Source: Escherichia coli (GTDB lineage: Bacteria > Pseudomonadota > Gammaproteobacteria > Enterobacterales > Enterobacteriaceae). From it: DNA of 64,000 nucleotides. Made by a program: the position numbers and the translations under genes. Below are positions 17,723 to 25,956 of the stretch, piece after piece (position 1 is the stretch's first letter; the number at the start of each line of letters is the position of its first letter). The notes below the pieces were generated by a model. That model did not search any database and had not been told where the DNA came from. It saw only the letters and a program-made list of their open reading frames with translations. The stretch lies in the NCBI RefSeq assembly GCF_024502345.1, contig NZ_JALDNN010000001.1; one strand, 5' to 3'.

Positions 17723-20637
<2,915 letters not shown>

Positions 20638-21694
20638 GGCTTTGTTGAATAAATCGAACTTTTGCTGAGTTGAAGGATCAGATCACGTATCTTCCCGACA
20701 ACGCAGACCGTTCCGTGGCAAAGCAAAAGTTCAAAATCACCAACTGGCCCACCTACAATAAAGCCCTCATCAACCGTGGCTCCATAACTTTCTGGCTGGA
20801 TGATGAAGCTATTCAGGCCTGGTATGAGTCAGCAACACCTTCTTCACGAGGCAGACCTCAGCGCTATTCTGACCTTGCCATCACGACTGTGCTGGTCATT
20901 AAACGCGTATTCAGGCTGACCCTGCGCGCTGCGCAGGGCTTTATTGATTCCATTTTTTCTCTGATGAACGTTCCGCTACGCTGCCCGGATTACAGCTGTG
21001 TCAGCAGGCGGGCAAAGTCGGTTAATGTCAGTTTCAAAACGCCCACCCGGGGTGAAATCGCACACCTGGTAATTGATTCCACCGGGCTGAAGGTCTTCGG
21101 TGAAGGCGAGTGGAAAGTCAAAAAGCATGGCCAGGAACGCCGCCGTATCTGGCGTAAGCTGCATCTCGCCGTTGACAGTAAAACACATGAAATCATCTGC
21201 GCTGACCTGTCGCTGAACAACGTTACGGACTCAGAGGCCTTCCCCGGGTTAATCCGGCAAACCCACCGGAAAATCAGGTCAGCCGCCGCCGATGGCGCTT
21301 ACGATACCCGGCTATGTCACGATGAACTGCGGCGTAAGAAAATCAGCGCGCTTATCCCTCCCCGAAAAGGTGCGGGTTACTGGCCCGGTGAATATGCAGA
21401 CCGTAACCGTGCAGTGGCTAATCAGCGAATGACCGGGAGTAATGCGCGGTGGAAATGGACAACAGATTACAACCGTCGCTCGATAGCGGAAACGGCGATG
21501 TACCGGGTAAAACAGCTGTTCGGGGGTTCACTGACACTGCGTGACTACGATGGTCAGGTTGCAGAGGCTATGGCCCTGGTACGAGCGCTGAACAAAATGA
21601 CGAAAGCAGGTATGCCTGAAAGCGTGCGTATTGCCTGAAAACACAACCCGCTACGGGGGAGACTTACCCGAAATCTGATTTATTCAACAAAGCC
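20638..21694 (+). mobile_element. IS903-group (IS5 family) insertion sequence, 1057 bp
   Basis: Perfect 18-bp terminal inverted repeats GGCTTTGTTGAATAAATC at 20638..20655 and 21677..21694; a single transposase ORF; the flanking 9-mers ACGAGATGT and GAGTGATGC do not match, so there is no target-site duplication. Confidence 0.9.
20670..21638 (+). CDS. IS903-type DDE transposase
   Basis: Translation ...WPTYNKALINRGSITFWLDDEAIQAWYESATPSSRGRPQRYSDLAITTVLVIKRVFRLTLRAAQGF... matches the remembered IS903/IS102 transposase; the true start may be internal to the listed ORF. Confidence 0.85.
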   Translation: MKDQITYLPDNADRSVAKQKFKITNWPTYNKALINRGSITFWLDDEAIQAWYESATPSSRGRPQRYSDLAITTVLVIKRVFRLTLRAAQGFIDSIFSLMNVPLRCPDYSCVSRRAKSVNVSFKTPTRGEIAHLVIDSTGLKVFGEGEWKVKKHGQERRRIWRKLHLAVDSKTHEIICADLSLNNVTDSEAFPGLIRQTHRKIRSAAADGAYDTRLCHDELRRKKISALIPPRKGAGYWPGEYADRNRAVANQRMTGSNARWKWTTDYNRRSIAETAMYRVKQLFGGSLTLRDYDGQVAEAMALVRALNKMTKAGMPESVRIA

Positions 21695-22038
21695 GAGTGA
21701 TGCGTTACTTTCCGGTAAAAATAAAAAGGTAAATAGAGCGCAATATCGGAAATAACATCGCCAGTTTCATTCAAAATCGCCCCCAGACGTGTTTGCTGAT
21801 TGCACTCACGCGCCAACATGCCATCCAGCGCATTGAGCGCCATACGGATAAAAAGCACGATGGGCAATAGCAAAAAGAGGATGGGTTGTGCCACCAACAC
21901 CAACAGCAATCCGGTAAAAAGAGAAAGCGCCAGTGCCGTAAGAGTGATGTGATTCGCTGTAACGTGGTGCTTATAAAGCCAAAACATCGTCGGCCTTAAC
22001 AGCGACTGAAAGAGCGGTTTTATCTGGTAGAGCGTCAT
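21695..22038 (-). pseudogene. ynbA: CDP-alcohol phosphatidyltransferase YnbA, N-terminal ~114 codons only, 3' end replaced by the IS
   Basis: MTLYQIKPLFQSLLRPTMFWLYKHH... membrane protein; the ORF runs into the IS right end, against a remembered 201-aa full length. Confidence 0.5.
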
Positions 22039-22336
22039 TTATCATTCCGTGATATTCAGTTTGCTCTATGGTGCATCAATTGTGATGGCGGAGATATCAC
22101 AACGCGGAGCATCAACGTAAATTCGGAATATATCAAGATGTGGTGGATGGTTTTCCTACACATCTGTTTGATTACCGACTGGATGTCAGTGAGATACCAT
22201 CGATCACTGTACGAATCAATGAATCCATTGCCTTTTCCCTGATTATCCAGCCGCAAATCCTGGCCTTAAACATATGCACTCCATGCCATTAAAAAAGAAA
22301 CAAAAGGGAAATGCATCTTTCCCTTTTGTATATTCG

Positions 22337-23197
22337 TTATTCTCGCGAAATACCATCCAACGTAGACAACACTTCCTCAGAAAGATGCAATTTTTCAGCA
22401 GCCATATTCTCCCGTAAATGCGCAACAGAAGACGTCCCTGGGATCAGCAAAATATTCGGTGAACGTTGTAACAGCCACGCCAGCGCCACCTGCATGGGTG
22501 TTGCACCCAGGCTCGCAGCAACATCGGAAAGTGTGGACGATTGCAGCGGTGTAAAGCCCCCGAGCGGGAAGAACGGCACGTAGGCAATGCCATCGTGGGC
22601 CAAAGCATCAATCATTGCATCATCAGCACGGTGCGCGATGTTGTATTCGTTTTGCACACAGACAATTTCGGCAATCTTGCGCGCCTCTGCAACCTGCGTC
22701 GGTGTGACATTGCTCAGGCCAATATGTTTTACCAGGCCTTGTTGTTGCATCTCTGCCAGCACGGTCAGGCTGGCCTCAATCGATCCTTCCGCTGGGCCAT
22801 GACCATCCCCCATCATAACGCGCAGGTTAACCACATCCAGCACGTCCAGCCCGAGATTACGTAGATTATCGTGCACCGCTTTTTGCAGCTCTGCCGGAGA
22901 AAATGCGGGCAACCAGGAAGCGTCCTCTCCACGCCGCGCACCAATTTTAGTGACAATTGTCAGGTCGTCAGAGTAAGGATAAAGCGCTTCGCGGATAATC
23001 TGATTGGTGACGTGCGGACCATAAAAGTCGCTGGTATCAATGTGAGTGACGCCCAATGCCAGCGCCTCACGCAGCACAGTTATAGCGACGTGGCGATCTC
23101 TTGGGGGACCAAAAACCCCAGGACCTGCCAGTTGCATCGCGCCATAACCAAGACGGTTAACGGATTTTGTACCGAGAGTAAATGTATTGCTGCTCAT
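22337..23197 (-). CDS. ydbC: Aldo-keto reductase YdbC
   Basis: 286 aa, MSSNTFTLGTKSVNRLGYGAMQLAG..., AKR family; followed by a hairpin plus T-run near 22296..22330. Confidence 0.85.
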   Translation of the reverse strand: MSSNTFTLGTKSVNRLGYGAMQLAGPGVFGPPRDRHVAITVLREALALGVTHIDTSDFYGPHVTNQIIREALYPYSDDLTIVTKIGARRGEDASWLPAFSPAELQKAVHDNLRNLGLDVLDVVNLRVMMGDGHGPAEGSIEASLTVLAEMQQQGLVKHIGLSNVTPTQVAEARKIAEIVCVQNEYNIAHRADDAMIDALAHDGIAYVPFFPLGGFTPLQSSTLSDVAASLGATPMQVALAWLLQRSPNILLIPGTSSVAHLRENMAAEKLHLSEEVLSTLDGISRE

Positions 23198-23425
23198 CGC
23201 ACCCTGCCCTGTAATAAAACGGATTGAGAAAAATCAGTATAGAAACGAAAAGAGATAAATAATGCGAAGGCGTAAACAAGATTACTGGATGAGTTGCTCT
23301 ATTGTCCTGAAAAACACAAAACAAAACGCGTCAAGTACCGCATCCGGCAATAAAAAACCGCAACCTGTATAGCGTTGCGGTTTAGGTATCACATGCTAAA
23401 AATTAGAATGTTCAGTATCTGGACG

Positions 23426-24016
23426 TTACTGTTTCGGTCGCAGATTCTCATCAAATACCAGACGTTTCCTGTTCGGTTCAACTTCCCGCAATGGCTCAAC
23501 TTGATGCAACGTCTGCTTACAACGAGTCACCAGCACCTGATACTCATGCGTACCCTGCTTTTTCCATGCCAGCTCCTGCTCACTGAGTTCACGAATCGCT
23601 TTCGCCGGGCTGCCGACAATCAGGTAATTGGCAGGCATTTCTGCTTTGGCTTTCACAAATGCGGATGCGCCAACAATGCTGTTCTCGCCAATCACCGCGC
23701 CGTCCATCACTACCGCGTTCATTCCCACTAATGCATTGCGGCGGATAATGCAACCATGAAGGATAGCGCTATGACCAATATGCCCATCTTCTTCCACGAC
23801 AGTATCCTGTTCGGGAAAACCGTGCATAACGCAATTATCCTGAATGTTCGCGCCATCTTTCACTACGATACGACCAAAATCGCCACGCAGATTGGCATTT
23901 GGCCCAACGTAAACGCCCTTGCCGAGAATAACATCGCCGATCAATACCGCTGTCGGATGGACAAAACTCTCTTCTGGCACAACCGGAGTCAGACCATCTA
24001 TCTGGTAAATTGGCAT
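23426..24016 (-). CDS. paaY: Hexapeptide-repeat thioesterase PaaY, apparently intact
   Basis: 196 aa, [34 protein letters not shown]... Confidence 0.85.
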
Positions 24017-24555
24017 AACGCCTCCTGTTCAATATTCAAACCGCCAAAACGTTGAAAATACAGGCTTCCCGGCGCAGGCAGTTCACCGACCGAGGTTTCA
24101 CCTTTTTCACTAACGAACGCTAAAGCAGCAGGCGCTACGCGCTGATAAATGTTGATACACAGCTGACGCGCCGTATGCCCTGCCCAGTGCGCCGGAAGCA
24201 ACTCCTCTGGCAACAATGGGTCTTTAAGGACGACACGGCGATAAAAATGGATCAGTAAAAGCTGAATATGAAATGCACGCTCCGGGGTTAACTCGTCTGC
24301 TGCCTCTTTTAACAGCGGCACCAGCGGGCGGAATGACTGAATAAAGGTTTCGTACATGGCATTTTGTTCAGTTAAATGCCAGCACTCTTCCACTCTGGCA
24401 CGCAGTGCTGCACGAGAAAGCGCCAGTGGTATTTGCGCTTCAAAACAAATCACGTTATCCGCCAGAAGGGCATTATTTAGCGCATTACGTGCGGCGGGAC
24501 GGTTAAGGGTCAGCAACAATACTTGTTGCTGACGGCTGACGATCAGTTCGCTCAT
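23998..24555 (-). pseudogene. Deletion-fusion remnant: first ~31 codons of paaF joined in frame to the C-terminal ~150 codons of paaX
   Basis: Translation MSELIVSRQQQVLLLTLNRPAARNALNNALL (PaaF N-terminus) continues directly into ADNVICFEAQIPLALSRAALRARVEECWHL... (PaaX C-terminal half). Confidence 0.6.
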
Positions 24556-25193
24556 GCCATCCCCTTCGCGTCAAAGTCAACCACCACATCGCTGGTCAGC
24601 GGCAGTGCCTGGCAACTCAACACATAGCCTGCGGCCAGTTCATCCGGTTCCAGACTGTAATTGGTTTCCATCGCCACTTTGCCACGCAGCACTTTGCATT
24701 TGCAGGTCGCACAGACGCCGCCTTTGCAGGCATAGGGCAGATCAGCCCCCTGGCGCAATGCCGCATCGAGAATGCTTTCATCGTCGGCATTAAGCACGAT
24801 TTCCCGATCCCGCCCATCCTGACGTACAGTCACTTTTTGTCCGTCACTTTGCACGTTAACGCTACGTTTGACGCGCGTGCCAGGCGTATTAAACCGCTCC
24901 AGATGAATGGTTTTATCTGGCATTCCCAGTGCTTTTAAGGCGGCTTCCGTCTCATCCATCATCGCCGCCGGACCACAAATAAATGCCTCATCATAAAGAC
25001 GAAAATTAATGAGCGAGGCCCCAAGTGACTGTAATTTTTCACCGTCAATACGCCCGTGAAGCAGATCGCTGTCGAGGGTTTCCTGACTGAAAATGCACAA
25101 CAACTGTAAACGCTGAGGATATTTGTCTTTCAGGTCTGCCAGTGCCTGGCGAAACATCATGCTCTGGCTGGTACGGTTACCGTAGATCAGGGT
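24552..25193 (-). pseudogene. paaE: paaE remnant, C-terminal ~200 codons (NAD-binding and 2Fe-2S ferredoxin domains), N-terminus deleted
   Basis: MMFRQALADLKDKYPQRLQLL...CKGGVCATCKCKV... matches the PaaE C-terminus; PaaE-like sequence ([11 protein letters not shown]) extends upstream to about 25193 and then stops. Confidence 0.6.
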
Positions 25194-25956
25194 GATGCCC
25201 GCACAAAACCAGCGACATGCTCTGCAACTGGCTTGTGCAGGCGGCGGTAGCCTTGCGGGAACGCTGGTGACGGCTGATCCGCAAATTGCGCGTCAGTTTA
25301 TTGCCGACGCGGCACGTACGCATGGGCGAATTCAGATCCTCAATGAAGAATCGGCAAAAGAATCCACCGGGCATGGCTCCCCACTGCCACAACTGTTACA
25401 TGGTGGGCCTGGTCGCGCAGGAGGCGGTGAAGAATTAGGTGGTTTACGAGCGGTGAAACATTACATGCAGCGAACCGCTGTTCAGGGTAGTCCGACGATG
25501 CTTGCCGCTATCAGTAAACAGTGGGTGCGCGGTGCGAAAGTCGAAGAAGATCGTATTCATCCGTTCCGCAAATATTTTGAGGAGCTGCAACCAGGCGACA
25601 GCCTGTTGACTCCCCGCCGCACAATGACAGAGGCCGATATTGTTAACTTTGCTTGCCTCAGCGGCGATCATTTCTATGCACATATGGATAAAATTGCTGC
25701 TGCCGAATCTATTTTTGGTGAGCGTGTGGTACATGGATATTTTGTGCTTTCTGCGGCTGCGGGTCTGTTTGTCGATGCCGGTGTCGGTCCGGTCATAGCT
25801 AACTACGGGCTGGAAAACTTGCGTTTTATCGAACCCGTAAAACCAGGCGATACCATCCAGGTGCGTCTCACCTGTAAGCGCAAGACGCTGAAAAAACAGC
25901 GTAGCGCAGAAGAAAAACCAACAGGTGTGGTGGAATGGGCGGTATGGGCACGCTAA
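25192..25956 (+). pseudogene. paaZ: paaZ remnant: end of the aldehyde-dehydrogenase domain plus the MaoC hotdog domain, without N-terminus or native C-terminal end
   Basis: [35 protein letters not shown]... [48 protein letters not shown]... corresponds to PaaZ from about residue 430. Confidence 0.6.

Follow-up and report, generated by a model that had tools for sequence, protein, structure and literature searches.

How two neighbouring spacers in an Escherichia coli genome came to be far shorter than their counterparts in strain K-12 is the question raised by the region around pdxI (old name ydbC) in the 64,000-nt stretch of DNA analysed here (the window). A sequence-only reading of the window had noticed that very little DNA separates ynbA from pdxI and pdxI from paaY. 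It had also stated that K-12 carries ydbD in the first interval and an IS-disrupted ydbA in the second, and had left it to be decided whether the compact state is ancestral or the result of secondary deletion. The short spacers are real: according to the ORF list and the sequence, 298 bp lie between the pdxI stop and the ynbA start (22039-22336), and 228 bp lie between paaY and pdxI (23198-23425). The remnant of ynbA (ynbA'), pdxI and paaY are all on the minus strand, and the orientation of the window is reversed with respect to the K-12 map.

The K-12 gene order given in that reading is also that of the annotated K-12 record, which reads paaY, ynbG, ydbA (split by IS2D and IS30C), pdxI, ydbD and ynbA, with intervals of 9,159 bp from paaY to pdxI and 2,539 bp from pdxI to ynbA. 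Both ydbD and ydbA are absent from the window. When the window is aligned with K-12 by BLAST, the homology falls into three blocks (21694-22137, 22244-23412 and 23425-24464), and the K-12 segments that are missing are one of 2,348 bp with ydbD and one of 8,941 bp with ynbG and ydbA. K-12 does not have the compact spacers, and the gene order named in the sequence-only reading thus stands. In effect, the window resembles K-12 MG1655 (b1400-b1408) in the flanking genes, the region upstream of pdxI, the terminator hairpin and decayed REP that follow ydbA, and the pdxI terminator, with paaY and pdxI 96-98% identical, but two segments are missing from it, one of 8.9 kb (ynbG, and ydbA together with IS2D and IS30C) and one of 2.3 kb (ydbD).

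The reading that best accounts for this difference, with a probability of about 0.9, is that the two spacers arose through two distinct, old deletions without IS involvement, from an ancestor with the order paaXY-ydbA-pdxI-ydbD-ynbABCD. Sequence comparison shows both that the two deletions took place and where they end. Of the two states that had been considered, the ancestral one does not hold, and gene remnants together with outgroup synteny indicate secondary deletion at both spacers. Nor is there any appreciable probability that the short spacers are an artefact in the assembly of the window's genome. Nothing specific favours such an error, apart from the fact that the IS and several deletions of the window are unseen in complete E. 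coli genomes, whereas the same 2.77-kb stretch is 99.86% identical in the complete genome of 2013C-3264 and recurs in 153 complete genomes. In 2013C-3264, and in about 150 complete genomes that have both compact junctions, the arrangement is likewise ynbA, 298 bp, pdxI, 229 bp and paaY, and the identity between 2013C-3264 and the window extends over 2,773 bp, both spacers included. Genomes of this type nevertheless have ynbA-ynbB in full and an entire paa operon, while the window has an IS903-linked loss and three paa/tynA deletions. The features of the region are collected in Table 1.

Table 1. Features of the ynbA-pdxI-paaY region and its surroundings, in window coordinates.
Feature	Position	Strand	Basis or remark
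IS903-type insertion sequence (IS5 family), 1,057 bp	20638-21694	+	NF033579, 357 bits; 99.4% to IS903B copies
ynbA 5' fragment, 344 nt	21695-22038	-	
ynbA'	start codon ends 22038	-	ORF list
Rest of the 106-nt allele-specific segment	22138-22204	-	no alignment to K-12
33-codon remnant ORF from the fusion, MFKARICGWIIREKAMDSLIRTVIDGISLTSSR	22172-22273	-	
ydbD 3' remnant	22205-22243	-	34/39 nt match to the ydbD end of contig L093
ydbD 5' remnant (start codon and codons 2-10, MFKARICGWI)	22244-22273	-	GGAG ribosome-binding site retained upstream
pdxI terminator-like hairpin	22300-22329	-	12-bp stem and T-run; also in K-12
pdxI (ydbC), intact, 286 aa	22337-23197	-	PRK10376, 557 bits
Decayed REP pair	23300-23350	-	CCGCATCCGGCAA of the sequence-only reading at 23338-23350
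Intrinsic terminator, stem CCGCAAC/GTTGCGG	23350-23380	-	T-run; MFE -21.1 kcal/mol, z = -2.97
ydbA 3' remnant, ...GATACTGAAC(11 nt lost)ATTCTAA	23403-23425	-	ydbA stop codon at 23403-23405
paaY, intact, 196 aa	23426-24016	-	TIGR02287, 375 bits
paaX'/paaF' deletion, 6,433 bp lost	24463-24464		
paaE'/paaZ' deletion, 4,421 bp lost	25193-25195		
paaZ'/tynA' deletion, 1,584 bp lost	25940-25944		

On the paaY side, the stop codon of paaY is followed immediately in the window by CGTCCAGATACTGAACATTCTAA (23403-23425). In sequences that carry ydbA (K-12, A1.S1.160, UM146, MCJCHV-1, A24 and the outgroups), this gene ends in ...GGCGTGATGCTGAACTTCAAGAAAACGTTCTAA. The compact allele matches ...GATGCTGAAC, lacks the next 11 nt and then continues with the GTTCTAA of the ydbA end, which is plainest in the O145 copy. 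In general form, the stub GAT(A/G)CTGAAC...(A/G)TTCTAA aligns to the end of ydbA in six ydbA-bearing strains or species, and the remnant comprises the last ~20 nt of the gene, including the stop codon. The first deletion removed ydbA and ynbG, running from just past the paaY stop to a point ~30 nt short of the ydbA stop, and left these last ~20 nt, the stop codon, the terminator hairpin and the decayed REP in place, and the region upstream of pdxI untouched. As for the gene itself, in several genomes (L005 4719-7002, L006 4708-7002 and L087 5223-8098) RefSeq gives the name 'EntS/YbdA MFS transporter' to the large autotransporter gene of the YdbA/BigA type, which looks like a mix-up of ydbA and ybdA.

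The paaY-pdxI spacer also contains the partial REP-like sequence and the hairpin that the sequence-only reading had proposed as possible deletion scars, an interpretation that fails on comparison with occupied alleles. Both elements lie in the 207-bp stretch from the ydbA stop to the pdxI start, which is nearly base-for-base the same in ydbA-bearing strains. They are present in K-12, A1.S1.160, UM146, MCJCHV-1 and A24, all of which carry ydbA, and they sit 23-88 nt outside the deletion endpoint. Their conservation in these strains indicates that both are older than the deletion and outside the deleted interval. The actual scars are the ydbA stub at 23403-23425 and the ydbD stub at 22205-22273. 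The case illustrates that a motif close to a junction is best compared with occupied alleles before it is taken for a scar.

The hairpin (CCGCAACCTGTATAGCGTTGCGG, 23358-23380) has the sequence features of a rho-independent terminator, as a stem of 7-10 bp is followed by UUUUUU on the transcribed (minus) strand, and such a function is predicted for it. It stands 45 nt past the paaY stop in the window, and in K-12 the same hairpin comes after ydbA. A simple terminator scan that allows loops of at most 8 nt missed it because its loop is longer. The paaY-proximal hairpin that K-12 has of its own is gone with the deleted segment, and the terminator that once served ydbA would now be the one at which paaXY transcripts end. 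A complete REP would be an imperfect palindrome of ~35 nt with the consensus GCCGGATG...TATCCGGCCTAC, and the sequence at 23338-23350 falls short of it. In E. coli, only the GCCGGATGCGG half-site is left here, with the same decayed copy in K-12, and two outgroups (L008 and L009) have both members of an inverted REP pair there, complete. To judge from this comparison, the element is an old, decayed REP, in line with its earlier description as partial. In addition, an Rfam scan of the spacers gave nothing, the sole match being the patAB leader (25.9 bits, where the gathering score is 92), which coincides with the pdxI terminator hairpin, and a promoter scan found sites no more numerous than in shuffles.

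Rearrangements are known to occur at REP elements and hairpins, and both elements lie less than 90 nt from the ydbA deletion endpoint. For this reason, it might be supposed that they have promoted recurrent, independent deletions, as recombination hot spots or scars. This is very unlikely, since the REP and the hairpin are unchanged in ydbA-bearing strains and outside the deleted interval, the paaY side has no repeat partner, and one junction is found in all compact genomes examined, even to the extra loss of 11 nt. Clear microhomology was sought at both deletion junctions, and none explains either. On the ydbD side, for instance, K-12 has ATACG at both sites, but the junction in the window (ATA/ATC) makes no use of it.

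The two-deletion reading finds its counterpart evidence at the other spacer, where both ends of the missing ydbD ORF are kept at the empty site, in order and orientation. In K-12 orientation, positions 22244-22273 read ATGTTTAAGGCCAGGATTTGCGGCTGGATA, which is the ydbD start and codons 2-10; these 30 nt are identical in translation to the N-terminus of full-length YdbD from E. coli and E. albertii. Next to them is an allele-specific segment of 106 nt (22138-22243) that a distant BLAST search finds, within E. coli, only at 482 compact loci. Shuffled sequences score as well as this segment in local alignments with K-12 ydbD on both strands, and global alignment with the same gene reaches only p ~0.02. 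By contrast, the first 39 nt of the segment align, with 34 matches, to the exact ydbD 3' end of contig L093, from a divergent Escherichia that is ~85% identical to K-12 in nucleotide sequence. The target comprises the last 53 nt of ydbD and 11 nt downstream, and the alignment consists of ATCCGGGAACAGGCAATG, 14 nt that are absent from the window, and GATTCATTGACTTGTAAAGTG, with the stop codon spanned. Its score is 35, compared with 20.7 +/- 2.6 for shuffles, and 0 of 300 shuffles reach it. The right end of the ydbD deletion is therefore not placeable on a ydbD of the K-12 type, the match being significant only against L093. The rest of the segment is presumably diverged intergenic DNA formerly 3' of ydbD.

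Since codons 1-10 are kept and the 3' end matches that of L093, the allele can be described as a fusion of ydbD codons 1-10 with the final ~50 nt of the gene. The second deletion removed ydbD codons 11 to ~755 and fused the gene start to these last ~50 nt. A later loss of 14 nt then shifted the old ydbD stop out of frame and left a stub ORF of 33 codons; the former stop itself (TGA, 22216-22218) is retained. No sign of constraint is seen in the stub ORF, which is decaying in other strains. Of the five substitutions that separate the window type from the UM146 type, three alter the amino acid, the copy in strain A24 has extra small deletions, and one database copy is frameshifted. When the protein database was queried with a chimera of the YdbD C-terminus and the stub tail, only YdbD fragments and that frameshifted copy were matched, and no full-length YdbD with the tail of the stub was found.

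Whether the genes were lost or gained can be judged from the outgroups, in which the occupied state is found at the same position in E. albertii, the Escherichia of contig L093 and Pseudocitrobacter faecalis. In E. albertii, ydbD comes directly after pdxI; the L093 contig is collinear, with the order pdxI-ydbD-ynbA-ynbB-ynbC; and P. faecalis has paaK-paaX-paaY-ydbA-pdxI. Furthermore, ydbA lies upstream of pdxI in a second Escherichia-like genome and in some E. albertii. The reverse scenario, in which the compact spacers are ancestral and insertion brought ydbA and ydbD into K-12-like strains, is extremely unlikely in view of these three outgroups with occupied arrangements, and also because the empty sites still contain both ends of the ydbD ORF and, for ydbA, the 3' end of the ORF including the stop codon, none of which an insertion would leave at an unoccupied site. 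It would be in agreement with the description of the region as a zone of gene-content variation (PMC4951805), with the variable flanks of pdxI in E. albertii and other relatives, and with the 39% of E. coli genomes that are without ydbA. The polarity of the two common differences beside pdxI is thus settled as loss, not gain.

The frequency of the compact junctions was surveyed in 5,426 complete E. coli genomes, which were counted if one place covered at least 80% of a junction-spanning probe. The compact ynbA-pdxI junction (no ydbD) is present in 480 genomes (5,266 with any match), the compact pdxI-paaY junction (no ydbA) in 2,033 (5,205 with any match) and both junctions in 153 (5,304 with any match). 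All four combinations of presence and absence are seen: K-12 has both genes, O145 RM9872, O103:H2 and CH427 have ydbD only, UM146 and MCJCHV-1 have ydbA only, and the window has neither. The ydbD junction is identical in the window, 2013C-3264, UM146 and MCJCHV-1, and the same in A24 with further small losses, while ydbD-deleted alleles of the window and B2 types, which are ~5% different, have the junction in common. Similarly, the ydbA junction is identical in the window, 2013C-3264, A30, O145 RM9872, O103:H2 and CH427, despite a divergence of 1-6% in the flanks. Such identity across the compact genomes examined points to single old events, on the basis of 5-6 genomes read base by base and of uniform match lengths in spread samples, out of the 480 and 2,033. 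Each deletion allele would have spread by descent and recombination, which would account for all four combinations in E. coli. The exact junctions could be used as simple markers for these four haplotypes.

The compact state is an ordinary and widespread variation in gene content, already known apart from the exact junctions. The paa-ydbA interval has been described as a zone of genomic heterogeneity in phylogroup A E. coli (Goldstone et al. 2016, PMC4951805). The zone is the same interval, from ydbH/ynbE/ydbL to ynbC/ynbD/azoR, and full-length ydbA is reported in ~42% of phylogroup A, along with variable carriage of ydbA and independent deletions within the paa cluster (PMC4951805). The passages of that work on this zone give carriage percentages without junction sequences or polarity, and no discussion of ydbD loss was found in them (PMC4951805). 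A literature search for papers on the junctions found none beyond this pan-genome description (PMC4951805).

There are also signs that bear on the age of the ydbD-deleted allele. The 3' end of the stub is of the E. albertii or L093 type (GGCAATG...GATTCATTGA), unlike every sampled E. coli YdbD, which ends in ...RKL(D/N)ELY. Between deleted and intact ydbD alleles, the ynbA-proximal spacer (window 22039-22137 against L003 16523-16621) has an identity of ~77-80%, whereas the genes that flank it are 95-99% identical; overall, the spacer adjacent to the stub is 20-45% diverged. Taken together, the type of the stub end and the diverged spacer suggest that the allele either is old or entered from a different lineage of Escherichia. 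Even so, it is rather unlikely that the deleted allele predates all surviving E. coli ydbD alleles or was imported in this way. If a long-lived presence/absence polymorphism of ydbD did exist, selection on YdbD could be behind it, and the stub ORF, which has kept the ydbD ribosome-binding site, could be expressed.

Next to the ynbA-pdxI spacer, what the sequence-only reading had called ynbA is only the 5' 344 nt of this gene. The rest has been replaced by the IS903-type element, which that reading had missed, and the ORF of the ynbA fragment (124 codons, 21664-22038, minus strand) continues into it. The element has the 1,057 bp, the 18-bp terminal inverted repeats (GGCTTTGTTGAATAAATC) and the IS5-family transposase of IS903 (IS5 family), and stands in for 1,320 bp comprising the 5' end of ynbC, ynbB and the 3' end of ynbA. 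A 9-bp target-site duplication is absent at 20638-21694, where the flanks differ, and the missing 1,320 bp would fit either a deletion next to the element or recombination between two IS copies. This arrangement occurs in 0 of the 5,426 complete E. coli genomes; in three of them, with a cover of at least 80%, an IS5-family element lies at a different place among the ynb genes. In addition, ynbD (17723-19015, minus strand) has an in-frame stop codon, which is likewise annotated in 2013C-3264. Together with the IS903 loss, this stop inactivates the entire ynbABCD operon in the window. In E. albertii L091, L092, L094 and L095, pdxI-ydbD is situated between ydbL (or the BigA/ydbA gene) and azoR-hrpA, without the paa cluster and without ynbABCD. 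The lack of ynbABCD in this species means that the ynb operon, too, varies across Escherichia.

Beyond paaY, the window has three further IS-free deletions relative to K-12, with overlaps of 2-5 nt at the joints, which the sequence-only reading had also missed. The paaX'/paaF' junction is found in 0 of the 5,426 complete E. coli genomes, which puts the source strain outside this set, possibly in a Shigella-like lineage. Taken as a whole, the window adds to the picture of a decaying ynb/paa/tynA region. Two observations concern pdxI, which is intact. PdxI has an amino acid identity of 72-79% to proteins of Mesorhizobium, Burkholderia and Corallococcus, among others, compared with 79% to Enterobacter, and this likeness may be a sign of unusually strong conservation or of horizontal spread. 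Finally, in some B2 genomes (e.g. EC958, ST131), homology to the window begins only at 22401, within the 3' end of pdxI, at ~92% identity, which points to a further layout downstream of this gene.
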